Source: Smithellaceae bacterium | GTDB taxonomy: Bacteria > Desulfobacterota > Syntrophia > Syntrophales > Smithellaceae | NCBI GenBank assembly: GCA_050008655.1 | Contig: JBEKMF010000001.1 | Coordinates: forward strand, 1,445 to 65,444 | Length of the DNA: 64,000 bases | Direction of reading: 5' to 3' | In this document: positions 19,661 through 63,797 of the stretch, piece by piece | How the letters are laid out: each line of letters begins with the position of its first letter | How positions within the stretch are numbered: position 1 is the first letter of the stretch | Position numbers and translations under genes: made by a program | The notes under the pieces: generated by a model | Database searches by the model: none | The model's input: only the letters and a program-made list of their open reading frames with translations | Told to the model about the DNA's origin: nothing

Positions 19661-19958
19661 TTAAAAAACATTGTCGAGCTAGCTATGCCCTTTTTAAATG
19701 ACTGTCAAGCAATATTTGCCATACATTTTTGTATTATTTCTTCATCCTTTTTGAGTAAAAGGGAGGAATTCAATCCGTAATAAACACAATTGAAGTTCTT
19801 CGCGTCAAGCCACTGAGAATCTTCGATTCTTAGGGGGCCATATTAGTCGGTATTCACTCGCTTACCCGCAGCAAGCTACAGGGAATGCGCTTGCTGTCGA
19901 ATTCACACCCGGCAACAAACATCGACACTACACCCCATATTTTGCGGTCAATATTCCA

Positions 19959-25443: not shown

Positions 25444-25672
25444 ACTTCAGAAATAAAGTGCATAACCTAATAACCTGAGGGTCACAAGAGGTCACGTCAC
25501 CACTCAAGCTTGCAGGTCGAATGAATGAAACTCAAATATTACAAACGCAGTGCAGTAATATTTGTAAGTTGAATGCATCCCGCAAAGCAGATGATAAAGC
25601 GACCTCCCGCGGATTACCGCGCATTTCTACTTTGGCCAGAGCCGGGGAATTCCAAATCGCGGGATCGATTGC
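25410..25672 (-). repeat. family-1 modular intergenic repeat, locus 3 (mostly reverse orientation)
   Basis: The reverse complement of 25431-25525 aligns base-for-base with the long unit at 27683-27775 (ATTCGACCTGCAAGCTT...GTGACGTGACCTCTTGTGACCCTCAGGTTATTAGGTTATGCAC...CTGAAGTTTGGGTCTCATTA). Additional alpha-like hairpins occur at 25640-25672. Confidence 0.85.
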
Positions 25673-27647: not shown

Positions 27648-28048
27648 AATCACGGGTATCTACGATACTCTCCGCCTTCGCGGGATAATTCGACTGCAAG
27701 CTTCAGCATGTGTGACCTCTTGTGACCTTCAGGTTATTAGGTTATGCACTCTGCTTCCGAAGCCTGTGTCTCATTACAACTTACTAATTTTCCCACATTC
27801 GTTATGAAAATTGGAGTTTCACGAACCACGGGTATGAATCCCAAAGCAAGCTGGGGATATTAGTATTGCCCCGCTAAGCTTCGCACGCGGGATAACCCCA
27901 GTAGCCTTTGCTATAGGATTAATTCAGCTAACAGATATTACAAGCGCAGCGCAGTAATATCTGAGTTTCATAAATTCGACTTGCAAGCTTCGGCGGTGAC
28001 GTGACCTCTAGGTTATGCACTCTGTTTCTGAAGCTTGAGTCTCATTAC
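27648..28048 (+). repeat. family-1 modular intergenic repeat, locus 4 (about 4 units, best-preserved copies)
   Basis: It starts CACGGGTATCTACGATACTCTCCGCCTTCGCGGGATAATTCGACTGCAAGCTTCAG, followed by the nested stem GTGACCT..GTGACCT..AGGTTAT..AGGTTAT and then CCGAAGCCTGTGTCTCATTA. A second full unit spans 27975-28048 and ends in GAGTCTCATTA. Confidence 0.9.
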
Positions 28049-40099: not shown

Positions 40100-40184
40100 C
40101 TGACGGTGGCCGGTGAAGCGTCGTTCGTGAAGCGTATCTTGTGCTTCACGCTTTACAAGATGTTAGATACAAAAGGAATTTATA
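40100..40184 (+). promoter_or_regulatory. structured leader element J4 (paralogous to J3)
   Basis: GGTGAAGCG-tcgtt-CGTGAAGCG-TATCTTG-tg-CTTCACG-cttta-CAAGAT-GTTAGATAC-AAAAGGAATTTATAATG. It carries a compensatory change relative to J3 (TCTCG/CGAGA becomes TCTTG/CAAGA). Confidence 0.75.
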
Positions 40185-43100: not shown

Positions 43101-43883
43101 CTGGAAATAGTAAATGAAAAAGGTTCTATAACGAATTTTGAAACAGAGTATTATAAAAAAGACGGCAGCCGTATCTGGGTATCCATCAACATGCACGCTG
43201 TCCGGGATGATCAGGGACACATTCTCTATTACCAGGGAATTAATCAGGACATTACGGAGAAAAAGAAAATAGAAGCGGAACGGCAGGAAAATATCGCACG
43301 CTTAAGAAAATCTCTGGGCGCCACAATTAATGCCATGGCTGTAACTGTCGAAACAAGAGACCCCTACACGGCAGGCCATCAACGAAGAGTGGCTGATCTG
43401 GCGCGCGCTATTGCCACGGAGATGAATCTCACCGGCGATCAAATCGACGGCGTGCGCATGGCCAGCATGATTCATGATATCGGCAAGATATCCATTCCTT
43501 CCGAGATTCTCACCAAACCGACTAAGCTTACCAACCTGGAATTTAATTTAATTAAAACGCACCCGGCATCCGGATATAATATCCTCAAAGACATTGAGTT
43601 CCCCTGGCCCATCGCCCAGATTGTTCTGGAGCATCACGAACGTATAGATGGCTCCGGTTATCCGAACGGCCTTAAGGGAGAGCAAATCCTCCTGGAATCG
43701 AAGATTATAGCCATAGCCGATGTAGTGGAAGCCATTTCTTCGCACCGGCCCTATCGCGCCGCCTTCGGCATTGATGCGGCATTGGATGAGATCACTAAAA
43801 ACAGGGGTATTCTCTTTGATCCTGATCTTGTGGATGCCTGTCTGCGGCTTTTCCGGGAAAAGAATTATAATCTGGCCGCTTGA
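40185..43883 (+). CDS. response regulator with REC, about 8-9 PAS domains and an HD-GYP domain
   Basis: 1232 aa. The REC domain is about 85% identical to that of the upstream paralog. It has many PAS-end signatures (DITDRK, DITERK, DITEAK, DITEKK) and HD-GYP motifs (HDIGKI, HHERIDGSGYPNGL). Confidence 0.9.
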   Translation: MTKRTESTASKPQSLRVLMVEDSEDDVLLIIRELKKGGYNPVYEWVETATAMKKALKEKQWDIILCDYKLPKFNAPSAIALLKEANIDIPLIIVSGTIGEETAVECMRLGAHDYIMKNNLSRLCQAITRELEGADSRSRRKQAEKSLRESEERFRSLFENSLMGISAATPNGHLIHANPAYALMYGYDNPVQMIAAITDIGHQLYANPEERKEVLRLLSKKGFMEPREVEVIKRDGTRFSVLVSAREIRDAGGKLLYYQAAHLDITDRKKLEEILVKEREDLKLIIDASPIRVFFKDKEGKFIRVNRIYAKTLNMPEENIIGKTVFDLYSPQIAQSMTGDDQEVFQSRRPKLNIIEQYESASGIRWVQTDKIPIFDKDGVPVGLIGFAQDITDREKLQEILVKEREDLKLIIDASPIIVFYKDKEGRFIRVNKIFADALNIREESFVGKTVFDFYSPQIAQNMTDDDQEVLQSRRPKLNIIEQYESASGLRWVQTDKIPICDKDGIPLALIGFAQDITDRKQTERALRESEENFHISLDNSPLGVRIATAEGETLYANQAVLDMFGYTSIDELRKTPLKDRYTPESYADFQIRKKKRGRGEFAPSEYEISIVRKNGEIRHLRVFRKEVIWNGAKQFQIIYQDITERKQAEETLRESEEKYRNILESIEDGYYEVDLAGNLTFFNDSLCRINGYPREELMGMNNRQYTDEYNAKQIFQAFNEVYRTEKPATGYEYEVIRKDGAKAYIAASISLRKDAAGKKIGFRGIIHDITEAKRTEEALKKSEEKYRLTFASTSDIIFTVDPELKVSNITPSVEKVLGYSPEELINKHFSDLNLMTPESLERAIFNVQQVFSGLDVPNAIYEFITKDGVKGIGEVTGSPIIQENKIIGVTCVARDITERKLAETALTKSEEKYRSLVENAQEGIYQSAVGYLTLNPALAHMLGYDSPEEVMATVTDIARQLYVNPDDRKKLLEIVNEKGSITNFETEYYKKDGSRIWVSINMHAVRDDQGHILYYQGINQDITEKKKIEAERQENIARLRKSLGATINAMAVTVETRDPYTAGHQRRVADLARAIATEMNLTGDQIDGVRMASMIHDIGKISIPSEILTKPTKLTNLEFNLIKTHPASGYNILKDIEFPWPIAQIVLEHHERIDGSGYPNGLKGEQILLESKIIAIADVVEAISSHRPYRAAFGIDAALDEITKNRGILFDPDLVDACLRLFREKNYNLAA
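40976..41731 (+). repeat. in-frame tandem duplication of a PAS module (2 x 378 nt)
   Basis: The protein repeat runs ITDR(K/E)KL(E/Q)EILVKEREDLKLIIDASPI...GFAQDITDR. A run of about 58 nt (GAAATTCTGGTAAAAGAGCGGGAGGACCTTAAACTCATTATCGATGCTTCGCCGATCA) is identical in both copies; the remainder is about 85% identical. Confidence 0.85.
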
Positions 43884-48589: not shown

Positions 48590-50014
48590 TTATTTTTTGG
48601 ACAGATACTCATGAATCGCTTTGGCTGCTTTGCGTCCCGCACCCATCGCCAAAATTACTGTTGCCGAGCCCGTGACAATATCGCCGCCGGCATAAATACC
48701 CTCGCGGCTGGTGAGTCCCGATTCGTCTTTAGTAATAATATAGCCGCGCTTGTTTGTTGTGAGTCCCGGTGTAGTTGCCGGCACGATGGGATTGGCCATC
48801 GTCCCTACGGCCACAACAACGGTATCGACATCTATCACAAATTCCGATCCTTTGATGGGTATGGGGCTTCTTCTTCCTGAAGCATCCGGCTCGCCCAATT
48901 CCATCTTGATACATTTGACGCCGGTGACCCAACCCGCGGCATTACCGATATATTCCACAGGGGCGGTCAGCATCAAAAACTCCACACCTTCTTCCCGGGC
49001 ATGATGAACTTCTTCTTTACGTGCGGGCATTTCCACTTCGGTACGGCGATAAATTATCATGGCTTTCTCGGCGCCTAAGCGTAGCGCCGTGCGCACCGAA
49101 TCCATAGCCACATTACCGCCGCCAATTACTGCCACACGCCTACCTCGAACAATCGGGGTATCATATTCGGGAAAGCGATATGCTTTCATTAAATTCGATC
49201 TGGTTAGATATTCGTTAGCGGAATAAATGCCGCTTAAGTTTTCACCGGGGATATTCATAAAAACAGGCGCTCCTGCGCCTACGCCGATAAATACCGCGTC
49301 ATAACCCTCGGCAAAAAGTTCATCAATGGTTTTAGTGCGACCAATGACAAAGTTAGTCTCGATTTTTACGCCCAGCTTCTTTAAATATTCCACTTCTGCT
49401 TCGACGATGGCTTTGGGCAGACGAAATTCCGGAATACCGTAGACAAGCACGCCGCCGGCCTTATGTAAGGCCTCAAATATTGTCACATCATAACCCAATT
49501 TGACTAGATCGCCCGCAATAGTAAGGCCTGCAGGGCCCGCGCCCGCAATAGCTATCTTCTTGCCATTGGTTTTAACTTTGGGAGGAATTGTTACCTTGCC
49601 GGCACTGCGTTCATAATCGGCGGCAAAGCGCTCCAGGCGGCCAATGGCCACCGGTTCGCCCTTTTTACCCAGAATACATTGTTTTTCGCATTGATCTTCC
49701 TGCGGACAAACCCGGCCGCAAACCGCCGGAAGACTATTCGTTTCTTTTAACTTTTTGGCAGCTTCGACGAATTTCCTTTCGGCGATATCTTTGACAAATT
49801 CAGGAATTTTAACATCGACAGGACAGCCGCCGATGCAGCCCGGCTTTTTGCATTGGATGCAGCGTTTGGCCTCGGCTATCGCTTCTTCCTCGGAATAGCC
49901 CAGAGGCACTTCTTCGAAATTGGCGACCCTCTTTCGCGGATCCTGCTCGGGCATCTTTTGCCGCGGCACTTTTTCCTTCTTTTCCTTAGGTTCCTTAGTT
50001 TCCATCGCACCCAC
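48590..50014 (-). CDS. nfnB: NfnB / SudA-type NADPH-dependent oxidoreductase (GltD-like, homotetrameric glutamate synthase family)
   Basis: N-terminal Fe-S motifs (CIQCKKPGCIGGCP, CGRVCPQEDQCEKQC), two dinucleotide folds (GAGPAGL, GGGNVAMD) and GGDIVTG. An alternative start at 50005 is possible. Confidence 0.8.
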   Translation of the reverse strand: MGAMETKEPKEKKEKVPRQKMPEQDPRKRVANFEEVPLGYSEEEAIAEAKRCIQCKKPGCIGGCPVDVKIPEFVKDIAERKFVEAAKKLKETNSLPAVCGRVCPQEDQCEKQCILGKKGEPVAIGRLERFAADYERSAGKVTIPPKVKTNGKKIAIAGAGPAGLTIAGDLVKLGYDVTIFEALHKAGGVLVYGIPEFRLPKAIVEAEVEYLKKLGVKIETNFVIGRTKTIDELFAEGYDAVFIGVGAGAPVFMNIPGENLSGIYSANEYLTRSNLMKAYRFPEYDTPIVRGRRVAVIGGGNVAMDSVRTALRLGAEKAMIIYRRTEVEMPARKEEVHHAREEGVEFLMLTAPVEYIGNAAGWVTGVKCIKMELGEPDASGRRSPIPIKGSEFVIDVDTVVVAVGTMANPIVPATTPGLTTNKRGYIITKDESGLTSREGIYAGGDIVTGSATVILAMGAGRKAAKAIHEYLSKK

Positions 50015-50831
50015 ACTTATGCAGCTCGTAAGCCTGACGTTCGGAATCGCAATACATCTTCAGCCGGTCGGCAAGCAGCTTATAATCAACTTCGTGGCCG
50101 TCGAATTCCGGGCCGTCCACACAAGTAAATTTAGTTTTCCCCCCAACAACAACGCGGCAAGCGCCGCACATTCCCGTCGCATCGACCATAATGGAATTAA
50201 GGCTTACGATTGTCTTGATGCCCCGCGGCCGGGTAACATCGCTTACCACCTTCATCATCGGCACCGGACCAATGGCAAAAACTCGGTCGATTTTCTCGCC
50301 CTTATTGATCAAATCTTCTAGCACCTGGCTCACAAATCCATGGAAACCGTAACTGCCGTCATCCGTGGCTACAATTAGTTTATCAGATATTACGCCCATC
50401 TCCTTTTCCAAAATGAGCAAATCCTTTGTTCGCGAACCAATGATCGACATTACCTCGTTGCCCGCTTTCTTCAGGGCAACGGCTAACGGATAAACAACGC
50501 CTACGCCTACGCCGCCGCCAATGCAGACCACGCGTCCGTAATTTTTGATCTCCGTGGGATTACCGAGCGGCCCCTGCACATCCTGAATCGTGTCGCCAAC
50601 TTTCATCTTCGCGAGCATTGCCGTCGTTTTACCGACGACCTGAAAGATAGCCGTGATGGTTCCGGACTGAGCATCGGAATCGACGATGGTCAGCGGTATG
50701 CGTTCACCTTTTTCATCGATTTTCAAAATGATGAACTGGCCGGCCTTTCTCTTCTCGGCGATAACCGGTGCTGTGAGCACCATCTGAACGACATTTTCGG
50801 ATAAATTCTTTTTTTCGACGATCTTATTCAA
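49995..50831 (-). CDS. nfnA: NfnA / SudB-type ferredoxin-NADP reductase-like subunit (PyrK family)
   Basis: FAD/NAD-binding barrel (GQFIILKI, GERIPLTI, IGGGVGV) and a C-terminal 2Fe-2S motif (MVDATGMCGACRV...CVDGPEF). Confidence 0.8.
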   Translation of the reverse strand: MNKIVEKKNLSENVVQMVLTAPVIAEKRKAGQFIILKIDEKGERIPLTIVDSDAQSGTITAIFQVVGKTTAMLAKMKVGDTIQDVQGPLGNPTEIKNYGRVVCIGGGVGVGVVYPLAVALKKAGNEVMSIIGSRTKDLLILEKEMGVISDKLIVATDDGSYGFHGFVSQVLEDLINKGEKIDRVFAIGPVPMMKVVSDVTRPRGIKTIVSLNSIMVDATGMCGACRVVVGGKTKFTCVDGPEFDGHEVDYKLLADRLKMYCDSERQAYELHKCGCDGN

Positions 50832-50852
50832 AGTTTCTCTCCGTAATTATAC

Positions 50853-50877
50853 AAAAAAAGGGAGTCCAACGGCTCCC
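50853..50877 (-). terminator. rho-independent terminator after the flxA-like gene
   Basis: The minus strand reads GGGAGCCGTTGGACTCCC followed by TTTTTTT. It separates the flx/hdr transcription unit from nfnAB. Confidence 0.7.
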
Positions 50878-50932
50878 TCTATATATGCAAATCTCCGATT
50901 CATCAAGTCCCTAACCGAAACATTAATGAATA

Positions 50933-51772
50933 TTAGTACTCTTTGGTCAGCTTATCCAACTCCGCCAGAGAAAAGACAGGGCCATCTTTACAAACATATT
51001 TGCTGCCTACATTACAGCGGCCGCACTTACCAATGCCGCACTTCATCCTCATTTCCAGGGAGGTGATGATATTCTCCTTCGAAAAGCCAAGATCGAAAAA
51101 CACCGGCAGTGTAAAACGGATCATCACCGGCGGTCCACAGATTACAGCCACAGCGTTTTCCTTGCTGGGAGCAACTTCCTTACATACTGCAGGAACAAAA
51201 CCTTCCCTGCCCTTCCAGTCGGCATCTCCCTTATCTACCGTTACATTAAGATTTAAGTCGCTTCTTTTACCCCATTCGGCCAATTCACCTTTGTAAAGCA
51301 AAAGCCCGGGAGTTCTGGCGCCGTAAATAATCGTGATCTTGCCGAAACGTTTTCGGTTATCTTCGTGAATCATGTAATTAATCAGAGACCGCAACGTCGT
51401 AAAAGCGAATCCGCCGCCGACAATCACAATGTTTTTACCCTCCAGATATTTGAGGGGCCAGGAATTACCCAATGGTCCGCGGATACCCATTAATGCGCCT
51501 TCTTCCATCTCATGCAACGCCGTGGTTACAACTCCGGCTTTCTGGACGGTGAATTCCACATATCCCTTTTGGGTCGGCGATGATGCTATCCCTATGGGCG
51601 ATTCGCCCTTGCCGTAGATGGAGAGTTCGCCGAATTGTCCCGGAATATACTTATATTTTTCTTCATCTTCCGGGTTTACGAATGTAAAACGAAATGTCTT
51701 GATGTCTTTCGTATCCACTTCTGTGATTATTTTGTCTACCTTTACAGGAATCGGTACATACTGATTTTGCAT
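50933..51772 (-). CDS. FAD/NAD(P)-binding oxidoreductase with C-terminal 2Fe-2S, FlxA/HydG/AsrB-like
   Basis: Motifs PGQFGELS, RGPLGN, VGGGFAF and MKCGIGKCGRCNV...CKDGPVF. Confidence 0.7.
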   Translation of the reverse strand: MQNQYVPIPVKVDKIITEVDTKDIKTFRFTFVNPEDEEKYKYIPGQFGELSIYGKGESPIGIASSPTQKGYVEFTVQKAGVVTTALHEMEEGALMGIRGPLGNSWPLKYLEGKNIVIVGGGFAFTTLRSLINYMIHEDNRKRFGKITIIYGARTPGLLLYKGELAEWGKRSDLNLNVTVDKGDADWKGREGFVPAVCKEVAPSKENAVAVICGPPVMIRFTLPVFFDLGFSKENIITSLEMRMKCGIGKCGRCNVGSKYVCKDGPVFSLAELDKLTKEY

Positions 51773-51786
51773 TACTAACTCCCTAA

Positions 51787-52809
51787 TTATAATTTTGAAA
51801 TATCTTCAACAATTTTTCTAATATCTATATTAACGGGACAATACATGACGCAGCGACCACAACCGACGCAGGAAATTGCTTTAAAATTATCGACGTAATA
51901 CTTGAATTTATGCATGGTGCGTTGACGCCATCTTTCCTTCTGCGAAGGACGCGGATTGTGACCTGACGTTTCCTTGGTAAACAAGGGGAACATACAGGAA
52001 TCCCACGACCTAATGCGAACACCGTCGCTGCCTTTCACTTCATCGCTGATATCAAAACAATGACAGGTGGGACATAGATATGTACAAGTACCGCAAGCCA
52101 AACATTTAGAGTGAATTGTGTTCCAGAAAGGATGTTCAAAGTTATTATCCAAAATAGGCTTTATTTCATGAGCCGGAATTTTCGATGTAATGGCTGCTTT
52201 GGCCTTAGTGACAATTTCATTTTTCTTTGTTTCGGCTGCTGCATCCGCTTTGGTTTCACCAAAGTATTTAGCTAATTTTTCACCTTTTGGAGTGATAAAC
52301 TCGACAAGGTAGTCACTGCCGATATCTGTGAGAAGAATGTCTGCGCCTTCTGCGGATACGGGCTCACCATCAACCGATGTACAGAAGCAGGTAGTATAAG
52401 GAGGTTGCGAACAAGCTAGGGAAATAACCGTCGTGCTCTGTCTTTTGGCTACATAATAGCCGTCTTGATATTTTTCCTGATTAAAAAGTTTATCGAGCAG
52501 AAGAAAACTGTGGGCATCGCAAGGGCGAACACCAAACAATACCGATTCTTGTGTCTTGTTTTCGTCTGAGGAAAAAACCATGCCCTTTCCTGTACGGGTA
52601 TATTTCATCATAGTTTCCGTATGTGGGAAGAAAACATTTTTCGGCGCGTTCTTGGAATTCAAATAAGCAAAGAAAGGCTCGGCACCTTTTTGCAAGGGCT
52701 CAAAAAGAACATTATCTTCTTTTTTTACCGGCGCCCAAACCAGGAAGTCCCCGGCCATTTTCTTGGCAATGCCCGCTAGGGCATCTTTTTTAATTAAACG
52801 TTTTTCCAT
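51787..52809 (-). CDS. iron-sulfur protein, FlxB/HydB/AsrA-like
   Basis: CLACGTCTYLCPTCHCFD and CVGCGRCVMYCP motifs. Paired with the FlxA-like gene. Confidence 0.65.
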   Translation of the reverse strand: MEKRLIKKDALAGIAKKMAGDFLVWAPVKKEDNVLFEPLQKGAEPFFAYLNSKNAPKNVFFPHTETMMKYTRTGKGMVFSSDENKTQESVLFGVRPCDAHSFLLLDKLFNQEKYQDGYYVAKRQSTTVISLACSQPPYTTCFCTSVDGEPVSAEGADILLTDIGSDYLVEFITPKGEKLAKYFGETKADAAAETKKNEIVTKAKAAITSKIPAHEIKPILDNNFEHPFWNTIHSKCLACGTCTYLCPTCHCFDISDEVKGSDGVRIRSWDSCMFPLFTKETSGHNPRPSQKERWRQRTMHKFKYYVDNFKAISCVGCGRCVMYCPVNIDIRKIVEDISKL

Positions 52810-52830
52810 AATTTTCCCTAATTAAGAATT

Positions 52831-52932
52831 TAATGAGACCCAAGCTTCAGAAGCGAAGCACATAACCTAAAGGTCATCTGCGACTGAGCTTGCAGGTCGA
52901 ATTATCCCCGAAGCGAAGCGGAGTGGGATAAT
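52831..52932 (-). repeat. family-1 repeat, locus 5: single complete unit inside the hdr/flx operon
   Basis: The minus strand reads ATTATCCCACTCCGCTTCGCTTCGGGGATAATTCGACCTGCAAGCTCAG...GATGACCTTTAGGTTATGTGC...CTGAAGCTTGGGTCTCATTA. It lies between the hdrB stop (52956) and the flxB-like start (52809). Confidence 0.9.
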
Positions 52933-52955
52933 ATCAATATTCCTCCATAAATATA

Positions 52956-53804
52956 TCAAATCAACTGCAATTTTTTCAAAAGCGGTTGTGGATTAAACAT
53001 ATGGGATTTAAACGTATCCTTTGATCCGTCCAAACCCATCGCCAGAGCAATTAATTCCGTGAAATAAAACACCGGAAGTTTTAATTTGCTACTGGGGCGC
53101 ATATCCAGATTGGCCATACAAAGAGGACAGGCGGTGACCACGCAATTGGCGCCGGCTTCTCTCGCCGCGCTCATCAATTTATCGCACATATCGACGACAA
53201 TTTTTGTCTTGCTGATGGCTAATGACCCGCCACAGCAATCTGTTTTGTAAGACCATTTTTTTACATCGGCGCCGATTGTGCCCAATATTTTATCGAGCAT
53301 AAAAGGATTTTCATAGTTTTCAAACTCGCAAACATCAGGTGGTCTTAAAAGCAGACAACCATAATACGAAACCGGTTTCAATCCGATCAAGGGTTTGACT
53401 ACCTTTGCCGTCAGTGTGTCAATGCCAATCTCATTAAAAATGATATCAATAGGATTGCGGATAGCAATGCCTCCCTGATACTTGGCGCCAACCGCATCTT
53501 CAATCTTTGTTTTTAATTTCTTATCGGTCTTCAAATGATGTTCGGCCATTTTGAAGCGATTGAAGCAGGCGGCACAGGGAACCATTACATCCAGAGCGTT
53601 TTTTTCCGCGGAAATCAGGTTACGCGCCGAAAGAGCAATGGCTAAGTCAAAATTTGTGCTGTGCGCAGAGGAAGCTCCGCAGCAAGACCAGTCATCAACT
53701 TCTTTCAGTTCTATGCCCAGAGCGGAACTTACCGACTTCATGGACTGATCATATTCTTTTCCCGTCGCATGCAGCGAGCAGCCCGGATAGTATGAAACTT
53801 TCAA
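52956..53804 (-). CDS. hdrB: heterodisulfide reductase subunit B-like (two CCG domains)
   Basis: Motifs YYPGCS, WSCCGAS, VPCAACF, YYGC, TDCCGGS and TACPLCMANL. Confidence 0.85.
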   Translation of the reverse strand: MKVSYYPGCSLHATGKEYDQSMKSVSSALGIELKEVDDWSCCGASSAHSTNFDLAIALSARNLISAEKNALDVMVPCAACFNRFKMAEHHLKTDKKLKTKIEDAVGAKYQGGIAIRNPIDIIFNEIGIDTLTAKVVKPLIGLKPVSYYGCLLLRPPDVCEFENYENPFMLDKILGTIGADVKKWSYKTDCCGGSLAISKTKIVVDMCDKLMSAAREAGANCVVTACPLCMANLDMRPSSKLKLPVFYFTELIALAMGLDGSKDTFKSHMFNPQPLLKKLQLI

Positions 53805-53825
53805 CTCTAGCCTCCTTAGCCTTCT

Positions 53826-54353
53826 TTACAAATGCTTTGTTTTCTCAAATATATCTTTTACCGACTTCATATCCTTCGTACGCGGAGATAGAAGCGACAA
53901 CTTGCCCTTCATAAACATACCCGGAGCCATTAAAACGTCCGAGAACAGGTCCAGAGATTTTAATTTGTACTGGGCCATCATCATTGGCTCATTGATACGT
54001 CCACCTCGTTTAATTCCGGCAAGGAACGCTTCATGGAATTTCAATATATTCTTTTCGCGAGCACCGATACCTTCTTCAATAGCCATCTGCCTTAGCACAT
54101 CCATCATTCGGGCGATATCGATCTGATTGGGACACCGCGTAATGCATGTTTCACAAGACAAGCAAATCCAGATTGTCGAACTGTTCAGCACCTCATCGCG
54201 CTTGCCATTCTGTATCATTCTTACAACCTTGTTCAGGTTATATTCCATATGCGCTGCCACGGGGCAGCCGGCTGTGCATTTACGACACTGATAACATCGC
54301 TGTAGAGGCACACCGTTGATCTTCTTGTTTACTTCTTCCAGAAAAGTTTCCAT
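53826..54353 (-). CDS. hdrC: heterodisulfide reductase subunit C-like (2 x [4Fe-4S])
   Basis: CYQCRKCTAGCP and CLSCETCITRCP motifs; 175 aa. Confidence 0.85.
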   Translation of the reverse strand: METFLEEVNKKINGVPLQRCYQCRKCTAGCPVAAHMEYNLNKVVRMIQNGKRDEVLNSSTIWICLSCETCITRCPNQIDIARMMDVLRQMAIEEGIGAREKNILKFHEAFLAGIKRGGRINEPMMMAQYKLKSLDLFSDVLMAPGMFMKGKLSLLSPRTKDMKSVKDIFEKTKHL

Positions 54354-54377
54354 ACTGGCTCCATTACCTCGAACTAA

Positions 54378-55388
54378 TTATGGGTTGAAGATAAATTCTT
54401 CTTTATCATGATGTTCATCATATTTACCGAGCGGTGGCATATCTTCCATCGAAGAGCCGGCACGGTTACTGAAAAGCTCCCAGCAATCTTTGTCGATCTT
54501 TTTCAGGAATTTGCGCAAGTCAACGCCCATGGGACAAACGGCAACGCAAGAACCGCAATCGACACAGCGTCCGACCATATGATAGAGGCGCATCAACTGA
54601 AATACCTGCGTATCTGTTTTATCTTCACCGATGCCCACCCACTGCGGCTGGCTCTGCTCAACAAAACAAGTGGGGCAGTAGCAGGAAGGACAGGCCTGAC
54701 GGCAGGCATTGCAGCGTATGCACTTTTCCATCTCCTTGGTAAAATAGGCAAAACGTTCTTCTATTGATTTGGCTTCAAATTCCTTCACGTCATTATATTC
54801 GGCATCGGGATTCATGGCGGGAGCATTTTGGCCGACCATGACATCGGAAATTATCGGATTATTGAAACGGCAGGTGCGGCAGCTGTCAGCCAGCACGTCT
54901 TTTAATGCGACTGCCTTTTCCCCATCCGGGGTTTTCATCTTGATCTGCCCGTTTTCTATCGATCCTTCCACTATATCTGCGCCATTGATAGCCGCTTTCA
55001 ATTTCTTCCCATCCAGATAACCTGTGCAGGGCACGCCGATGATATAGACTTCATCGCGGCCATATTGTCTTTCCTGCAAATGGATGATCAGCGAACGAGT
55101 AGTACAGCCACGGGCAACAACACCGATAACTTTTTTCTTCCGGTCTTCCGGTTTAACCCGCTTTTGTGAGTTTTTGTGCGCCGTTATCAGATCATGCACG
55201 AATTTAGCCAAATTCTGCGTACAGAGATTATTCCATACGAGTTTGTCGGCTTCTTCCGGCGTGGTGATAAAACAAGGTGTTGCCGTGAGTGGAAGCGTGC
55301 CTTTTTCATAGCCGATAATCACGTCGGCCTTTTTTTCCAAAAGCAGCCTTTTTGCTTCTTCCCGCAATTTTGTCTCGATGTTTTCCAC
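54378..55388 (-). CDS. iron-sulfur oxidoreductase subunit, FlxC/HydB-like (uncertain)
   Basis: CIRCNACRQACPSCYCPTCF and CVDCGSCVAVCP motifs. The N-terminal Cys-containing domain (ARGCTTRS, GVPCTGY) is unassigned. Confidence 0.5.
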   Translation of the reverse strand: MENIETKLREEAKRLLLEKKADVIIGYEKGTLPLTATPCFITTPEEADKLVWNNLCTQNLAKFVHDLITAHKNSQKRVKPEDRKKKVIGVVARGCTTRSLIIHLQERQYGRDEVYIIGVPCTGYLDGKKLKAAINGADIVEGSIENGQIKMKTPDGEKAVALKDVLADSCRTCRFNNPIISDVMVGQNAPAMNPDAEYNDVKEFEAKSIEERFAYFTKEMEKCIRCNACRQACPSCYCPTCFVEQSQPQWVGIGEDKTDTQVFQLMRLYHMVGRCVDCGSCVAVCPMGVDLRKFLKKIDKDCWELFSNRAGSSMEDMPPLGKYDEHHDKEEFIFNP

Positions 55389-55425
55389 AGTAATTGTTTC
55401 CCCGTTTAATTTTTATTCCTGAAGT

Positions 55426-55866
55426 TTAACCAATTTTCTTTACTAATTTTTTGGCCGGCCCTAAAGCTTTAACTTTGGCAGTAACGCCTCTAATCACTTG
55501 AGCAAAACGGTCACCTTCGGATGCAGAAACCCAAGTAAACATGGTTCTATCACCCTCCATACCGATATACGACAAAAAGCTCTTTAAAGCGGCAAACTTC
55601 CGGCGCGCCACTAAATTTCCGGAGATGTAATGACACTCACCCGGATGACAACCGGAAACCAGAACGCCATCCGCTCCGCCTTGCAAGGCTTTGACGATAT
55701 AGAAAGGATTAATTCTTCCGGTGCAGGGAACACGGATAATTCTTACATTCGGTGGATACTGAATTCTGCTGATACCGGCCAGATCGGCTCCGGCATAAGT
55801 GCACCAGTTACAGACAATAGCAACAATTTTCGGCTCCCAATCTTTCTTTGCCACATTCTCAGCCAT
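55426..55866 (-). CDS. mvhD: MvhD/FlxD-type hydrogenase iron-sulfur subunit D
   Basis: Motifs IVAIVCNWCTYAGADLAG, IRVPCTGR and GADGVLVSGCHPGECHY. Confidence 0.9.
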   Translation of the reverse strand: MAENVAKKDWEPKIVAIVCNWCTYAGADLAGISRIQYPPNVRIIRVPCTGRINPFYIVKALQGGADGVLVSGCHPGECHYISGNLVARRKFAALKSFLSYIGMEGDRTMFTWVSASEGDRFAQVIRGVTAKVKALGPAKKLVKKIG

Positions 55867-55905
55867 ATATTCTCCGTCTCACGACTCACTTATGAGCCGT
55901 TTGCC

Positions 55906-58900
55906 TTAGTTTAAATTTTCCATCTGTGCCAATACTTCTTCGTTATTGAAACCGTTGAGATCAACTGCATTCATACGGCAGGATGCCGTACAGACACCGC
56001 ATCCTTTACATAAAACGGTATTGACGACCGCGCAGCCTTCCTTAAGATCTACCTGGATCGCGCTATATGGACAATTGATTTCACAAAGACCGCAAGCCGA
56101 ACATCTATCCTTATTGACATAAGCCGTCTTACCTTCCGCCTCTATGAAATCAAGAGTGAGGATTGTGCAAGCGCGTGACACTGCGGCATTCGCCTGAGTT
56201 ATTGATTCGTCACTGAACTTGGGCGAATGCGCCATGCCGCACATAAACACACCATCTGTCTGGAAATCAACCGGACGTAATTTCACGTGCGCTTCGAGGA
56301 AGAAACCGTCTTGATTGGTGGGTACCTTCAGCATTTGACCGATGGCCGCATTTTCGGGATTCGGCACAACGCCGACACTCAGAGCCACAATATCTGCCGG
56401 CAAAACAATCGCTTCATTAAGAATCGGATCAAATACTTTTACTTCGACTTTGTTGCCTTTGGCTATCACTTCCGGTTTCCTATCCTCTTCGAAAGATATA
56501 AATTTGATATTGGCTTCACGCGCTTTTTTGTAATAGTCCTCTTTAAAGGCAAAAGTGCGAATGTCACGGTAAAGAATTGTGATATCGCGGGAGGGATCGG
56601 CAGCTTTAAGTTCCAGTGCATTTTTAACTGCCTCGGAGCAGCAATAACGGCTGCAATAAGGTCTCTCTTTATCGCGCGAACCTACACATTGGATCATTAC
56701 GACATTTTTCACCGCGGCCAGTTTCGGATCTTTTTCGTAAACCAGAGTTTCCAGCTCTCTTTGCGTCTTCACTTTGGCATTTTGGCCGTAGAGATATTCT
56801 TTGGGTTTGTTCTCATTAGCACCGGTGGCTACGATCACCACGCCATGCTCGAAAACTTTTTCGCCTTCTTTAACCTTAACCGTGGTTTTGTAATTGCCGA
56901 TAAACCCTTCGATCTTTTCAATCCTGGCGCCGGTGGCTACTTGGATTAAAGGATTCTTGTAAACTTTTTCCAAAAGACTCTTCAAGTGAGAGCGAGTATC
57001 CAAACCTTCCAGAGTTTTATAGAGGTGATTGTAATTGCCGCCCAGACGTTCTTCTTTTTCCACAATGAACGAAGCAAAACCCTGATCGGCCAGTGACAGG
57101 GCAGCAGTCATGCCGGCCAAACCGCCGCCGATGATCAAAGCCTGATGATTCACAGAAAGCTGACCTGGTTTCAAGGGTTTCAGATATTGCGCCTTGGCCA
57201 CAGCCATGCGTATCAAATCTTTAGCTTTTTCCGTCGCCGCCTGAGGTTCATTCATATGCACCCAGGAATCCTGATCGCGAATATTGGCCATCTCGAACAA
57301 ATATCTGTTTAAACCGGCCTTCTCGCAGTTTTCCTGGAACAAACCTTCATGTGTGCGCGGTGAACAGGAGGCCACAACAACTCTCGTGAGATTTTTTTCT
57401 TTGATGACTTCGGCCATCTTCACGGCCGTATCCTGCGAACAGGTGAACAGATTGTCAGCGGAATAAACTACTGTGGGCAATGTCGCGGCATAATCTCTGA
57501 CGGCGGGTACATCTACTACACCGCCAATGTTGATGCCGCAATGGCAGACAAATACGCCGGTACGCACTCCCGTGCCACGTAAATCTTTTTCTTCCGGATT
57601 TTCCACCGCGGTGATCAGCGTGCCGCGCTGTGAAGCCAGAAGTCCTTCCGCACAGGCAGCGGCGGCACTGGCTTCCATAACCGTTTCGGGAATATCCTTC
57701 GGACCACCGAAAGCGCCGCAAACAAAAACGCCCGGACGAGAAGTCTGCACCGGATTTTCCAACTGTGTTTTGCAGAATCCATGCTCTTCCAACTCTATCC
57801 CCAGACTGCCCGCAAGCTTCTTGGCCTCTTTAGGCGGCATCAGACCGACGGAGAGAACAACCATGTCGAATTCTTCTTCGGTGAATGTTCCGTCCTGATT
57901 GACATATTTAATCAGCAGATTATTCCTCTGCTGTAGTTCTTTGATTGCTGACGGCATCGAACGGATGTAACGAATGCCGTATTCTTCTTTGGCACGATTG
58001 ACAAAACGGTCAAAATCCTTGCCATGGGCGCGAATGTCCATGTAGAAAATTGTCGGTTCCAGACCCTTGGCATGTTCTTTACCGATGATGGCTTCTTTGG
58101 TCGCATACATACAGCAAACCGACGAACACCAGCTGTTGTCGCAGGAGACGTCGCGGGAACCTACGCATTGAATGAACGCGATTTTCTTTGGTTCTTTGCC
58201 ATCGGAAATTCTCTGTACATGGCCGAAGAACGGCCCGGATGCGGATAGAATTCGTTCAAACTGAATGGCGGAAACAACATTTTTATAAATACCGTATCCA
58301 TATTCGCCGCGGATACGGGCATCAAATATTTCAAAACCGGGCGAGGCAATGACGGCGCCTACTTCGATGATTTCTTCTTCAACTTTCATGTCGTGGTCAA
58401 CAGCTTTGGCAATACAAGCTTCCACACACTGATAACATTCGGAGCATATGCCGCAATTCAAACAACGCAGTGCCTCGGCCACAGCTTGAGCTTCATCAAA
58501 GCCAATGCCGACTTCCTTGAAATTGGTTCGGCGATCTTGCGGTTTCATGAGGGGATATTTCACGCGGGGACTCTTGGGCACATCAGAAACATCGGCCTTG
58601 TCCGCCAGGTCTTTGGTCCAATCTTTTTCGCGTCCGGCCTTAATATCTTCACCCAAGAGATAACGATTGATGGACTTGGCTGCTTCTTTACCTGAATAAA
58701 CAGCCTTAACGACCGTCTGAGGACCGGTGACCACGTCACCACCGGAAAATACGCCAGCAATGTTTGTCGCGTAAGTAATCTTATCGTAATCGATATTGTT
58801 CCATTTGTTGATGGAAACGCCGCTTTCTTTGGTAATGAAAGAGAGGTCGGCTTCCTGGCCGATAGCGGGAACGATGGCATCGCATTGGACCATAAATTCC

Positions 58901-60333
58901 GATCCTTTGATTTCAATGGGTCGGCGGCGACCACTCGCATCCGGTTCGCCAAGCTCCATGCGCGTGCATTCGATACCCGTAACTTTCCCGTTCTTGCCGA
59001 GAACCCGCTTCGGGGCAACGAGGAATTTCATCTCGATTCCTTCTTCCATGGCTTCTTCGATTTCCTCCGGTGATGCGGGCATTTCCGCGCGGGTCCGGCG
59101 ATAGAGAATGAAAACATTCTTGGAGCCGGTGCGCACAGCCACGCGGACGGCATCCATGGCTACGTTACCGCCGCCAATAACAGCTACTCTGTCACCCAGA
59201 GAAACTTTTTTACCAAGATTGATCTGCATCAGATAATCAACGCCATGAACCACTCCCTGCATATCCTCGCCGGGAATGTTGAGCTTACTACTCTTCATCG
59301 TACCGCAGCCGATGAAGATCGCGCTGTAATCTTTCCGGAGCTGATCAAAGGAAATATCTTTGCCGATTTTTGTATTGAGGTGAATCTTCACACCCAGGTC
59401 TTGAATGACTTTGATTTCCGCATTGAGAATATTCTTGGGAAGACGGTATTCGGGAATGCCAACAGCCATCCAGCCGCCTGCGACCGGCAGGGCTTCAAAA
59501 ACTTCTACATCATAGCCTTCGATGGCCAGGTAGTAAGCACAGGTCAGACCCGAGGGACCGGCGCCGACAACAGCTACCTTCTTCCCTTTGCTTTCTTTCT
59601 TTTCGGGCAGGTAACGCGTATCGCCACTTAGATCGAGATCCGCAACAAAACGCTTCAGGTGCATAATATCGATGGGATCGTCCACTTTGCCCCGCATACA
59701 GGCCGTCTCGCAGGGATGGTTGCAAACGCGTCCGCAAACAATGGGAAAAGGGTTATCCTGTTTGATAAGTTTGAGTGCTTCTTTAAACTTGCCCTGACCA
59801 ATCAAGGCCACATAACCCTGAACACTGATATGAGTAGGACAATTGGCTTTACAGGGAGAGGTTCCCAGTTTATCGATGGCAAAACCGCTGGGAATAGCCT
59901 GAGGGAAATGGCGGAAGATAGCTTTTCTTTCACTCAAATTACCATTAAATTCAGCTTTTATAGAAACCGGGCAAACATTAGCGCAATCACCGCAACCTGT
60001 ACATTTATCCAGATTAACAAAACGCGGCGCTCTGGTTAATTTAACTTTAAATTTTCCCGGTTCACCTTCGACCGACTCCACAGTCCGTAGTGTTTTAATT
60101 TCGACATTGGGATGGCGCCCTACTTCCACCAGTTTCGGCGACAATATGCAGGCGGAACAGTCATTTGTGGGAAAAGTCTTGTCCAGTTGCGCCATGACGC
60201 CGCCGATACTGATCCCGTTTTCGACCAGATATACTTTCATTCCGGAATTGGCTAAATCGAGAGAGGCCTGAATGCCGGCGATTCCCGCACCAACAACCAT
60301 TACTGCACCAACTTTTTCGTTATCTTTTAGCAC
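55906..60333 (-). CDS. giant HdrA-like flavoprotein (HdrL-type): HdrA module interrupted by a GltD/NfnB-like module, fused to a second complete HdrA module
   Basis: 1475 aa. Four dinucleotide folds (GAGIAG aa 15-20, GAGPSG about 257, GGGNVA about 387, GGGLAG about 1069). Two CVGSRD motifs. Fe-S motifs at about 111, 161-211, 624-640, 1411-1452. The GltD-like block (aa about 155-570) aligns with the NfnB encoded at 48590. Confidence 0.85.
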   Translation of the reverse strand: MLKDNEKVGAVMVVGAGIAGIQASLDLANSGMKVYLVENGISIGGVMAQLDKTFPTNDCSACILSPKLVEVGRHPNVEIKTLRTVESVEGEPGKFKVKLTRAPRFVNLDKCTGCGDCANVCPVSIKAEFNGNLSERKAIFRHFPQAIPSGFAIDKLGTSPCKANCPTHISVQGYVALIGQGKFKEALKLIKQDNPFPIVCGRVCNHPCETACMRGKVDDPIDIMHLKRFVADLDLSGDTRYLPEKKESKGKKVAVVGAGPSGLTCAYYLAIEGYDVEVFEALPVAGGWMAVGIPEYRLPKNILNAEIKVIQDLGVKIHLNTKIGKDISFDQLRKDYSAIFIGCGTMKSSKLNIPGEDMQGVVHGVDYLMQINLGKKVSLGDRVAVIGGGNVAMDAVRVAVRTGSKNVFILYRRTRAEMPASPEEIEEAMEEGIEMKFLVAPKRVLGKNGKVTGIECTRMELGEPDASGRRRPIEIKGSEFMVQCDAIVPAIGQEADLSFITKESGVSINKWNNIDYDKITYATNIAGVFSGGDVVTGPQTVVKAVYSGKEAAKSINRYLLGEDIKAGREKDWTKDLADKADVSDVPKSPRVKYPLMKPQDRRTNFKEVGIGFDEAQAVAEALRCLNCGICSECYQCVEACIAKAVDHDMKVEEEIIEVGAVIASPGFEIFDARIRGEYGYGIYKNVVSAIQFERILSASGPFFGHVQRISDGKEPKKIAFIQCVGSRDVSCDNSWCSSVCCMYATKEAIIGKEHAKGLEPTIFYMDIRAHGKDFDRFVNRAKEEYGIRYIRSMPSAIKELQQRNNLLIKYVNQDGTFTEEEFDMVVLSVGLMPPKEAKKLAGSLGIELEEHGFCKTQLENPVQTSRPGVFVCGAFGGPKDIPETVMEASAAAACAEGLLASQRGTLITAVENPEEKDLRGTGVRTGVFVCHCGINIGGVVDVPAVRDYAATLPTVVYSADNLFTCSQDTAVKMAEVIKEKNLTRVVVASCSPRTHEGLFQENCEKAGLNRYLFEMANIRDQDSWVHMNEPQAATEKAKDLIRMAVAKAQYLKPLKPGQLSVNHQALIIGGGLAGMTAALSLADQGFASFIVEKEERLGGNYNHLYKTLEGLDTRSHLKSLLEKVYKNPLIQVATGARIEKIEGFIGNYKTTVKVKEGEKVFEHGVVIVATGANENKPKEYLYGQNAKVKTQRELETLVYEKDPKLAAVKNVVMIQCVGSRDKERPYCSRYCCSEAVKNALELKAADPSRDITILYRDIRTFAFKEDYYKKAREANIKFISFEEDRKPEVIAKGNKVEVKVFDPILNEAIVLPADIVALSVGVVPNPENAAIGQMLKVPTNQDGFFLEAHVKLRPVDFQTDGVFMCGMAHSPKFSDESITQANAAVSRACTILTLDFIEAEGKTAYVNKDRCSACGLCEINCPYSAIQVDLKEGCAVVNTVLCKGCGVCTASCRMNAVDLNGFNNEEVLAQMENLN

Positions 60334-60491
60334 CTGATACTCCTCATATATTCTCTATAGGCAAAACCTTTTAAAATATTATTTAATACAAGGCCGGACA
60401 AACTGGCGTCGGCTAACATAATTTAATCATCCTGTCAAGGCTAGCAGCTTTCTTATATCTACTTTTTTAATAATTATTGTATAAGAAATTT

Positions 60492-60506
60492 TTGACCATC
60501 GGTCAA
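60492..60506. promoter_or_regulatory. perfect palindrome TTGACC-atc-GGTCAA upstream of the hdrL-like gene
   Basis: 15-bp dyad 160 nt upstream of the 60333 start codon, nested between a 10-bp inverted repeat (GCCGGACAAA 60393-60402 / TTTGTCCGGC 60516-60525). The cognate regulator is unknown. Confidence 0.3.
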
Positions 60507-62414: not shown

Positions 62415-63797
62415 CTATTCCCGCTCAAAGGCTATCCCATACTTTTCCAGCTTCCGTTCAAAGGTCGGCCGGGAAATTCCCAATATCTCGCAAATTTCCC
62501 CTTTATTTTTATTCGTTTCTTTAATGACCTTTCGAATGTAGCGCTCTTCCACTTCATCCAGGGTCAGAAATTTGCCCAACTCGGCAGACGTAAATACATC
62601 TGTTGTTGCCTCCTTTGGCTGCTGGGCTGTCTCATCCTTACCGAGCTCGGGAAAATCATTTTTGCCCAAGACCTGCCCCTTAGCCACAACACAGGCCCGG
62701 ACCAATAAATTCTCCAACTCGCGGATATTGCCAGGCCAGCCATAGTTCATGAATATTTCCATCATTTCGTCCGAGATGCCGATAATTTTCTTGTGCAAAT
62801 CCAAATTAATTTTTGCCAGCAAATAATCAAGCAGGGGAGGAATATCTTGACGGCGCGTGCGCAACGGCGGAATATTTATCGATACAATATTCAAGCGATA
62901 ATACAGATCATCGCGGAATTTTCCTTCTTTCACCAGAGCCTTTAAATCCTTATTGGTCGCGGCCATAATCCGGGCGTTAACCTTGACTTTATCTTTACCC
63001 CCTACCCGATCAAATTCCATTTCCTGCAAAACACGCAAAAGCTTTGCCTGCAGGTTCACGGACATTTCGCTGATTTCATCCAGAAAGACCGTGCCGTAAC
63101 GGGCCAGCTCAAACTTGCCCAGTTTGCGGGCAACTGCACCGGTAAACGAACCCTTTTCATGACCGAATAATTCCGACTCCAGAAGTGTCTCGACAATCGC
63201 CGAACAATTAACGGCAATAAATGGTTCGTCGGGCGACGTATTATGATGGATGACTTTGGCGATTAATTCTTTGCCCGTACCGCTTTCCCCCTGAATGAGA
63301 ACGGTAGTCCGGCTTTGTGAAACTACTCCTATCGTTTTAAATATTTCCCGCATTTCATTGCCGGTGCCGACAATATCGCCGACCCGGAAATTGCGCGAAG
63401 GCTCCATCAAAAGCCCGTCAATCTTTTTTTCCATTTCCAGGGATTTCAGGGCCTTTTTAATCGCGATATCCAGTTCATCAACATTGACCGGTTTATGAAT
63501 ATAATCGAAGGCTCCGCTTTTCATGGCGTTAATCGTTGTTTCCATGTCATGATAAGCGGTAATCATAATCACTTTTATGTTTTCATTTTCTTCCTTCAGG
63601 TCTTCCAGCACGGAGAAGCCATCGACATCCGGCAGTCGAATATCTAAAATCACAACGTCTGCCGGATTTTGCACATACTTATTCAGGCCTTCCGTGCCGC
63701 TTTGAGCGGTTTCCACAGTGTAGCCTTCCTCAGTCAGGTACAAATCTAGAGTTTCCCTGATCGAAGCATCATCATCAATAACCAGAATTTTGGACAT
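62415..63797 (-). CDS. sigma-54-dependent response regulator (NtrC/AtoC family)
   Basis: REC (ILVIDDD, ILDIRLPD), AAA+ sigma-54 activator motifs (GESGTGKE, GAFTGA-like GSFTGA, ESELFGH) and a C-terminal Fis-type HTH. Confidence 0.9.
   Translation of the reverse strand: MSKILVIDDDASIRETLDLYLTEEGYTVETAQSGTEGLNKYVQNPADVVILDIRLPDVDGFSVLEDLKEENENIKVIMITAYHDMETTINAMKSGAFDYIHKPVNVDELDIAIKKALKSLEMEKKIDGLLMEPSRNFRVGDIVGTGNEMREIFKTIGVVSQSRTTVLIQGESGTGKELIAKVIHHNTSPDEPFIAVNCSAIVETLLESELFGHEKGSFTGAVARKLGKFELARYGTVFLDEISEMSVNLQAKLLRVLQEMEFDRVGGKDKVKVNARIMAATNKDLKALVKEGKFRDDLYYRLNIVSINIPPLRTRRQDIPPLLDYLLAKINLDLHKKIIGISDEMMEIFMNYGWPGNIRELENLLVRACVVAKGQVLGKNDFPELGKDETAQQPKEATTDVFTSAELGKFLTLDEVEERYIRKVIKETNKNKGEICEILGISRPTFERKLEKYGIAFERE

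Follow-up and report, generated by a model that had tools for sequence, protein, structure and literature searches.

A stretch of 64,000 nucleotides from a Smithellaceae bacterium (GenBank assembly GCA_050008655.1, contig JBEKMF010000001.1; called the window below, with positions counted from its first letter) was analysed for a cluster of genes encoding an Hdr/Flx-type electron-transfer system. Its minus strand carries nine open reading frames (ORFs) in the order hdrL, mvhD (flxD), flxC-like, hdrC, hdrB, flxB, flxA, nfnA and nfnB. The region consists of two units, the seven genes from hdrL to flxA (Unit 1, 60333-50933) and nfnAB (Unit 2, 50831-48590), and the locus is the Syntrophales form, marked by HdrL, of the known syntroph Hdr/Flox cluster with NfnAB as a frequent but non-obligate neighbour. 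On balance, we consider it probable that the seven products of Unit 1 form one soluble complex of ~335 kDa with multiple flavins and Fe-S clusters which performs flavin-based electron bifurcation or confurcation, and we predict it to be an NAD(P)H-dependent, ferredoxin-coupled disulfide reductase.

Gene order and subunits of the hdrL-flxA unit

To assign subunits, the window ORFs were scanned with Pfam and NCBIfam models. An earlier note on this DNA, made by inspection of the sequence, had listed the same nine genes as a complete Flx-Hdr-type set in which a giant fusion replaces hdrA. The ORFs were found at exactly those coordinates (Table 1), the family assignments agreed, and the domain assignments supported a complete set with HdrL in the place of HdrA. 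Completeness (FlxA, FlxB, FlxC-like, MvhD, HdrB and HdrC) was judged from family matches. GC content of the cluster (0.43-0.49) did not depart from that of the rest of the window. The flanking genes are unrelated: engB, a zinc-ribbon protein and a sigma-54 response regulator upstream, and lysE, a glycerophosphodiester phosphodiesterase and an acyltransferase/hydrolase downstream.

Conservation of the gene order was determined in one genome per species (GTDB set) by scanning with an HdrL alignment, which yielded 80 loci (designated by L numbers), and by mapping the nine window proteins onto these with tblastn. The order hdrL-mvhD-flxC-hdrC-hdrB-flxB-flxA with short spacers was present in 20 of 20 loci that encode an HdrL at least 70% identical and have enough downstream sequence; they belong to Smithella, Syntrophus, Syntrophaceae and other Syntrophales. 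Given this identical order, the seven genes represent one conserved operon and not a chance arrangement. The linkage postulated earlier was thus confirmed by synteny, and the idea of unrelated paralogues scattered over other genomes fails. In nearly all 80 loci mvhD came next after hdrL. Four distant loci (L030, L031, L037 and L055; HdrL 51-57% identical), from one Clostridia, one Desulfobacterales, one Syntrophobacterales and one unclassified bacterium, showed the order hdrL-mvhD-flxC-flxB-flxA without hdrCB between flxC and flxB. Three distant loci had hdrCB upstream of hdrL-mvhD, and 21 had hdrL-mvhD only. The most distant HdrLs retrieved by the scan, from other lineages, were 49-57% identical. 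HdrL homologues number in the thousands. Identity ranges from 70 to 95% across Syntrophales and reaches 94-95% in the best matches; those with names derive from Smithellaceae, Smithella, Syntrophaceae or Syntrophales metagenome-assembled genomes. A Joint Genome Institute (JGI) metagenome contig (L081) showed ~85% DNA identity over the whole cluster, and its independent gene calls comprised the identical nine genes and identical flanks.

The hdrL product as a whole scored 959 bits with NF040770 (HdrA2), which is below the cutoff of 1100, and its residues 158-650 scored 589 bits with PRK12771 (cutoff 516) with HdrA matches flanking on both sides. When HdrL was aligned to the HdrA structures 5ODC_A and 8RVU_a and its cysteines were mapped, it resolved into two complementary HdrA-like units. 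HdrL unit 1 (residues ~10-900) comprises a thioredoxin-reductase (TrxR)-like FAD domain and an inserted ferredoxin domain, the latter being split by a GltD/NfnB-like module of ~460 residues (about 158-620); the N-terminal domain and the C-terminal ferredoxin domain of HdrA are missing from it. The module contains an FAD site (GAGPSG257), an NAD(P)H site (GGGNVAMD387), YRR411 and two 4Fe-4S motifs. With the NfnB model TIGR01316 it reached 415 bits, under the cutoff of 471.75, and among solved structures it is closest not to NfnB proper but to fused modules of the GltD type (9BOV, 8OH5 and 9N5U, a 963-aa chain named 'NfnA'), which we take to be the NADPH sites of Stn- and NfnABC-type transhydrogenases. 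HdrL unit 2 (922-1475) consists of an N-terminal cluster domain, a TrxR-like FAD domain and a C-terminal two-cluster ferredoxin domain; residues 1003-1216 include no cysteine, so that an inserted ferredoxin domain is absent. Both units keep the equivalent of HdrA Lys409 (K746 and K1237), the residue that contacts flavin N5 (PMC6405883), together with the adjoining C-x-CC cluster motif, and the lysines and the motif were invariant in 12 HdrLs. From its sequence, HdrL looks like a covalently fused, asymmetric counterpart of the HdrA homodimer. MvhD would dock on such a protein at one site; there would be a single route to HdrC and a single ferredoxin-reducing arm and, in addition, an NAD(P)H entry module.

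Of the remaining subunits, HdrB aligned end to end with M. thermolithotrophicus HdrB (5ODC_B) and has kept all ten cluster-ligating cysteines; its score with TIGR03288 was 166 against a cutoff of 345. An automatic gene call in L081 cuts hdrB to 261 aa and thereby loses the essential Cys9; the true TTG start lies further upstream. In HdrC both CxxCxxCxxxC motifs are present, and residues 13-104 matched TIGR03290 (79 against a cutoff of 160) and NF041779, both under cutoff. FlxB was matched end to end by the ShyB, HydB and AsrA models of NCBIfam, far under their cutoffs, and FlxA scored 231 bits with PRK08345, likewise under cutoff. The FlxC-like protein gave a weak Pfam FrhB_FdhB_C match (23.7 bits, just at the cutoff). 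Its sequence matches were solely FdhB chains of Fdh-Hdr/Elp-Hdr complexes (7BKB_E, 9T1S_M, 8RVU_E), and in the solved Fdh-Hdr and Elp-Hdr complexes an FrhB/FdhB-type subunit is part of the donor module. An AlphaFold2 (AF2) model calculated from 21 homologues had a predicted local distance difference test score (pLDDT) of 64, with values mostly of 70-90 in the N-terminal 170 residues. All 12 significant Foldseek matches of the model were chains of the FrhB/FdhB/Fsr family, at low template-modelling scores (TM-scores, ~0.3). The model is thus moderate evidence that the FlxC-like protein is of the FrhB/FdhB type.

Table 1. Positions of the Hdr/Flx and nfn genes, of associated sequence elements and of the kdp genes in the window.
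Feature	Positions	Strand	Description
Palindrome	60492-60506	.	TTGACCGATGGTCAA; possible operator in the AT-rich hdrL upstream region
TTGACA box	60433-60438	-	Candidate -35 of an operon promoter, ~100 nt upstream of hdrL
hdrL	55906-60333	-	1475 aa; HdrA/GltD/HdrA fusion
mvhD (= flxD)	55426-55866	-	[2Fe-2S] electron-transfer subunit; Pfam FlpD 174.8 bits, full profile
flxC-like	54378-55388	-	336-aa Fe-S (possibly flavin) subunit, putatively of the FrhB/FdhB family; two Fer4 motifs
hdrC	53826-54353	-	Two [4Fe-4S] clusters; Cys 20/23/26/30 and 64/67/70/74
hdrB	52956-53804	-	Two CCG domains (Pfam CCG, 2 stretches); TTG start codon
Repeat copy	52828-52937	-	Dispersed intergenic repeat, ~100-110 nt, MITE/REP-like; in hdrB-flxB spacer
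flxB	51787-52809	-	AsrA/HydB/ShyB-like Fe-S subunit; Fer4_22 119.8 bits
flxA	50933-51772	-	AsrB/HydG-like FNR-type NAD(P)H/FAD/[2Fe-2S] subunit; FAD_binding_6, NAD_binding_1, DHODB_Fe-S_bind
Terminator-like hairpin	50852-50880	-	GGGAGCC..GGACTCCC and T-run between flxA and nfnA; terminator scan; stem-loop 50880-50857
nfnA	49995-50831	-	TTG start; PRK06222 408.6 bits (cutoff 220)
nfnB	48590-50014	-	Overlaps nfnA by 20 nt; TIGR01316 603.6 bits (cutoff 471.75)
kdpA	17585-19291
kdpB	15537-17573
kdpC	14947-15525
kdpD	12891-14918

nfnAB and the non-coding elements of the locus

By its sequence, nfnAB is a canonical pair with the predicted function of an NADH-dependent ferredoxin:NADP+ oxidoreductase. 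All nine genes had been described in the earlier note as one supercluster, a view that the comparison of loci does not support. Among the 18 Syntrophales loci with enough sequence, nfnAB followed flxA in 12, always after a gap of 77-279 nt (101 nt in the window), and was absent from this place in six; it is therefore a frequent neighbour and not an obligate part of the conserved unit. What stands in its place was inspected in five of the six loci, that is, in all except L013. Unrelated housekeeping genes follow flxA in L008 and L021, and three Smithella loci (L003, L020 and L022, of which L020 is Smithella sp. SCADC) carry a second Hdr set. In L020 (19635-24425) the latter consists of hdrD-like (Fer4 and 2 CCG, 398 aa), hdrA (649 aa), mvhD and flxC-like genes.

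A terminator that sets nfnAB off from flxA had been proposed, and the terminator scan indeed returned a hairpin followed by a T-run. A GC-rich hairpin was found in the gap in 12 of 12 loci with nfnAB; ten of these share the identical stem GGGAGCC...GGCTCCC, and L018 and L029 have a different GC-rich hairpin with a T-run. The T-run behind the hairpin is uninterrupted in nine of the 12 loci, and the other three have an interrupted T tract. As a conserved sequence feature, the putative terminator is real. The TATAAT hexamer at 50851-50846, considered previously as a possible nfnAB promoter, is present in the sequence. It was rejected as a promoter because a -35 partner is lacking, the TTG start of nfnA comes just 15 nt after it and conservation does not extend past close relatives; moreover, transcription starting from it would begin inside the nfnA ribosome-binding site. 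A promoter scan found no promoter-like site on the minus strand in the flxA-nfnA gap, and the hexamer is unlikely to be an independent promoter. Only 20-25 nt, about 20 nt in the window, separate the T-run from the nfnA start, which is too little room for a normal promoter, and nfnAB is therefore probably transcribed mainly by partial read-through from flxA, with the hairpin setting its level below that of Unit 1. The TTG start of nfnA (50829-50831) is kept in most Syntrophales relatives (L001, L009-L011, L015, L016, L018, L019, L025 and L029), which suggests a deliberately weak translation initiation.

Duplication of the NfnB- and NfnA-type modules had been put forward to explain their presence in two versions each; a recent event was rejected on the basis of subfamily scores and identities. 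Identity between free NfnB and the HdrL insert is 45%, and the two fit different GltD subfamilies; between NfnA and FlxA it is 31%, again with different subfamilies. Both pairs are thus ancient paralogues that were recruited separately.

The spacer between hdrB and flxB (146 nt) contains a 10-nt direct repeat and an 8-bp hairpin and had been described as a structured repeat within the operon. The repeat is there, but it is a copy of a dispersed element resembling miniature inverted-repeat transposable elements (MITE) or repetitive extragenic palindromes (REP), is specific to this genome and is not a feature of the operon. At least five further intergenic copies are present in the window (~9560-9629, 9658-9758, 25431-25540, 27676-27776 and ~27940-28047). 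The 3' end (TTCTGAAGCTTGGGTCTCATTA) and the middle (ATTCGACCTGCAAGCTT) are conserved between copies, and the 5' hairpin varies. RNA structure was considered for the spacer and dismissed, as its fold was no better than that of shuffled sequence (z = -1.1); the repeat had no match in Rfam. In other Syntrophales the hdrB-flxB spacer is 24-156 nt long and unrelated in sequence (56-60 nt in the closest relatives, L001 and L081). As neither L001 and L081 nor any other locus has a copy of the repeat in this spacer, the copy in the window represents a lineage-specific insertion and not operon design. Spacers of the Hdr/Flox operon tolerate insertions. A different insertion of ~165 nt is located in the hdrC-hdrB spacer of L081 (16518-16702).

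Upstream of hdrL, a TTGACA box may serve as part of a promoter, albeit an unusual one. CTTGA-AG was invariant in an alignment of six Smithella-group hdrL upstream regions; no canonical -10 was found 16-18 nt past the box. The palindrome located further upstream (TTGAC-N5-GTCAA) occurs at the matching relative position in only two close relatives, L001 and L022. A dCache/PAS histidine kinase and a sigma-54-dependent response regulator, followed by engB, are encoded upstream of hdrL (62415-63797 on the minus strand and beyond the end of the window; 3419-7417 in L081). In Syntrophales, engB is kept upstream of hdrL in 14 loci and the pair of histidine kinase and sigma-54 regulator in 12. Because this pair is conserved, a sigma-54 promoter was searched for upstream of hdrL. 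No convincing TGGCAC-N5-TTGC was detected, and matches across the window were no commoner than in shuffled sequences. A regulatory link from the sigma-54 regulator to hdrL is hypothetical.

Two other features of the window were noticed. A cyclic di-AMP (c-di-AMP) riboswitch (RF00379, 89.5 bits; 19526-19667, minus strand) is located directly upstream of kdpA-kdpB-kdpC-kdpD, which is a known and ordinary association. On the plus strand, a dense signalling island with no relation to the Hdr/Flox cluster (37853-43883) encodes two adjoining proteins of 748 and 1232 aa of the response-regulator/multi-PAS/HD-GYP type (HD_5), after a PAS histidine kinase (34466-36838).

Proposed electron path and alternative explanations

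In the complex that we favour, NAD(P)H would enter at two sites, FlxA (with FAD and [2Fe-2S]) and the GltD/NfnB-like module of HdrL. Electrons from FlxA would travel via FlxB, FlxC and MvhD to the N-terminal domain of HdrL unit 2, and the GltD module would feed the ferredoxin domain of HdrL unit 1. An HdrA-type FAD would then split the electron pair, the low-potential electron passing through the single C-terminal ferredoxin domain to ferredoxin and the high-potential electron through HdrC and the two non-cubane clusters of HdrB to a disulfide. In a syntroph the reaction might proceed in either direction, from NAD(P)H to reduced ferredoxin or, with ferredoxin and thiol being re-oxidised, to NAD(P)H. 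The adjoining NfnAB would equilibrate NADH, NADPH and ferredoxin, and a combined hub for these three carriers, as brought up in the earlier note, is possible.

Several points weigh against the explanation favoured here. The literature searched contained neither a structure nor an enzyme assay of a complex with Flx or HdrL, and two NAD(P)H sites in one complex are without precedent among characterised Hdr enzymes, so that direction and stoichiometry are guesses. The window holds no DsrC-like gene: in line with the earlier note, the window ORFs that were examined include neither DsrC nor a hydrogenase or formate dehydrogenase, and a DsrC-type C-terminal motif, sought among the window ORFs, was found in none. 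All Hdr/Flx subunits fall under the NCBIfam equivalog cutoffs (methanogen, sulfhydrogenase and Asr models), which makes them relatives and not orthologues of those proteins. The model of the FlxC-like protein is of moderate quality (pLDDT 64), and the case for read-through into nfnAB is made from spacing alone. Finally, HdrB-type non-cubane clusters can perform pure electron transfer, as in S. aciditrophicus EMO, whose HdrB-like domain lacks one ligand, has a blocked substrate pocket and only transfers electrons (bioRxiv 10.64898/2026.08.18.745454). It is for this reason that the retention of all ten cysteines in HdrB matters.

A rival explanation is that the complex reduces no disulfide at all and is an Hdr-scaffolded transhydrogenase with NADPH at the GltD module of HdrL, NAD+/NADH at FlxA and ferredoxin at the C-terminal ferredoxin domain, HdrBC being an electron-transfer or storage branch or feeding a non-thiol acceptor. 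FlxA (PyrK/NfnA-like) and the GltD module (NfnB-like) do recreate both cofactor modules of Nfn, the nearest solved relatives of the GltD insert are the fused modules of 9BOV, 8OH5 and 9N5U, clusters of the HdrB type only pass on electrons in EMO, and the four distant loci L030, L031, L037 and L055 keep flxDCBA with no hdrCB between flxC and flxB. We nevertheless regard this explanation as rather unlikely, since HdrB, unlike EMO with one ligand missing, keeps all ten cysteines of the catalytic cluster pair, hdrCB lies inside the operon in 20 of 20 Syntrophales loci, and the canonical NfnAB encoded next door would make a second transhydrogenase redundant.

The same four distant loci speak against the notion that at least two separate enzymes are merely co-transcribed, namely an HdrL-MvhD-FlxC-HdrCB reductase and a FlxBA NAD(P)H:acceptor oxidoreductase comparable to sulfide dehydrogenase, AsrAB or the beta-gamma part of sulfhydrogenase: they retain flxC-flxB-flxA directly behind mvhD, which links FlxBA to MvhD/FlxC as in Desulfovibrio. 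Moreover, the order was invariant in 20 of 20 loci, no AsrC- or hydrogenase-type catalytic partner for a free FlxBA is present, and hdrCBA-flxDCBA is described as one gene operon in B. wadsworthia (PMC12125255). Separate enzymes are improbable on these grounds, even though flxB and flxA resemble the self-contained pairs AsrA/AsrB and HydB/HydG, no spacer varies more than that between hdrB and flxB (24-156 nt), which accommodates an inserted element, promoter-like hexamers overlap the 3' end of hdrB, and HdrL has an NAD(P)H entry site of its own. The least likely explanation, for which we see hardly any prospect, is that all nine products assemble physically into one NADH/NADPH/ferredoxin supercomplex. 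It would fit the 12 of 18 Syntrophales loci in which nfnAB comes right after flxA and has no space for its own promoter, but nfnAB is absent from this place in the other six, where a second hdrD-hdrA-mvhD-flxC set or housekeeping genes were seen instead in the five inspected, the conserved terminator-like hairpin parts the two units, and every characterised NfnAB is a heterodimer that functions by itself (PMC6405883).

A bolder version of the favoured seven-subunit disulfide reductase would make HdrL an asymmetric HdrA pseudo-dimer on one chain, in which two flavin sites are supplied separately, one receiving NADPH electrons via GltD and the other NADH electrons via FlxABC-MvhD, and thereby coupling NADH, NADPH, ferredoxin and thiol/disulfide. 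Together with NfnAB expressed by read-through, it might constitute the missing NADH-to-ferredoxin reverse-electron-transfer device of Rnf-less syntrophs; we offer this as speculation with a small chance of being correct.

Relation to known Hdr and Nfn systems

The bioenergetics of methanogenic degradation has a standing gap, namely how syntrophic degraders of fatty acids, alkanes and aromatic compounds gain or dispose of low-potential reduced ferredoxin. The gap is sharpest in organisms without Rnf. The usual candidate is the Hdr/Flox cluster. It has been reported in Smithella genomes and proposed to supply reduced ferredoxin in organisms without Rnf, e.g. strain M82_1 (PMC5606693), and Flox-Hdr has been termed an "uncharacterized syntroph-associated redox complex" (PMC7382037). 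The gene cluster is therefore already in the literature, and the present locus is an ordinary, well-conserved instance of it. The analysis shows the invariance of the seven-gene HdrL form across Syntrophales, the catalytic-type cluster site of HdrB, and the organisation of HdrL as two unlike HdrA units fused into one chain and supplied with an additional NAD(P)H module, which together define a target for purification, e.g. from Syntrophus aciditrophicus. The interest lies in the enzyme class (asymmetric fused HdrA pair, two NAD(P)H sites, putative disulfide substrate) and not in this particular locus.

FlxABCD-HdrABC of D. vulgaris and Bilophila, proposed to bifurcate electrons from NADH to ferredoxin and a protein disulfide/DsrC (PMC12125255, PMC5947623), has the same subunit types. 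For Desulfovibrio/Bilophila, the gene order given in PMC12125255, which cites Ramos et al. 2015, is hdrCBA-flxDCBA. The earlier note had set the order of the present cluster against 'flxABCD-hdrABC' and thereby mistook protein names for gene order; hdrC before hdrB and flxD-C-B-A are normal and alike in both systems. Two differences hold: hdrCB is located between flxC and flxB instead of upstream of hdrA, and the 1475-aa HdrL takes the place of the canonical single-unit HdrA. As the host is a syntroph and the window has no DsrC-like gene, DsrC, the proposed acceptor in sulfate reducers, may not be the acceptor here.

The definition of HdrL comes from Desulfobacterium autotrophicum, where HdrA is fused to a glutamate synthase and the gene is followed by mvhD (PMC2702500). 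In Syntrophobacter fumaroxidans, an HdrABC/HdrL cluster (Sfum_0819-0824) with MvhD and an FdhB-like Fe-S protein was abundant in the proteome under sulfate (PMC5947623). These HdrLs, proposed to be NADH-linked (PMC2702500, PMC5947623), are likewise large HdrA/GltD-type fusions with mvhD next, and in S. fumaroxidans the FdhB-like Fe-S protein follows. They stand beside a separate hdrABC set or dsr genes and often contain selenocysteine, whereas the HdrL described here has cysteine only, is the sole HdrA-type subunit of its cluster and is joined to flxCBA. In HdrA9/10/11 of ANME-1 the inserted ferredoxin domain is interrupted by an NfnB-like module, and for these proteins NADPH coupling and possibly two bifurcation sites were suggested (PMC9012536). 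However, these proteins are archaeal, belong to coenzyme M/coenzyme B (CoM/CoB) metabolism, carry no second HdrA unit in the same chain and lack an association with flxCBA.

With the methanogen complexes MvhADG-HdrABC, Fdh-Hdr(-Fmd) and Elp-Hdr (5ODC, 7BKB, 8RVU), the locus shares the HdrA FAD with the Lys409 equivalent, HdrC, the ten cysteines of HdrB, the MvhD adaptor and what is probably a donor-side subunit of the FrhB/FdhB type. It differs from them in its predicted donor, which is NAD(P)H rather than H2, formate or F420H2, and in the replacement of the HdrA homodimer by what appears to be a single-chain asymmetric pseudo-dimer; CoM-S-S-CoB cannot be assumed as substrate. NfnAB, finally, passes the curated cutoffs of the NfnAB (NfnSL) transhydrogenase and shows the typical gene overlap, and is unusual only in its conserved TTG start and its place behind the Hdr/Flox terminator.

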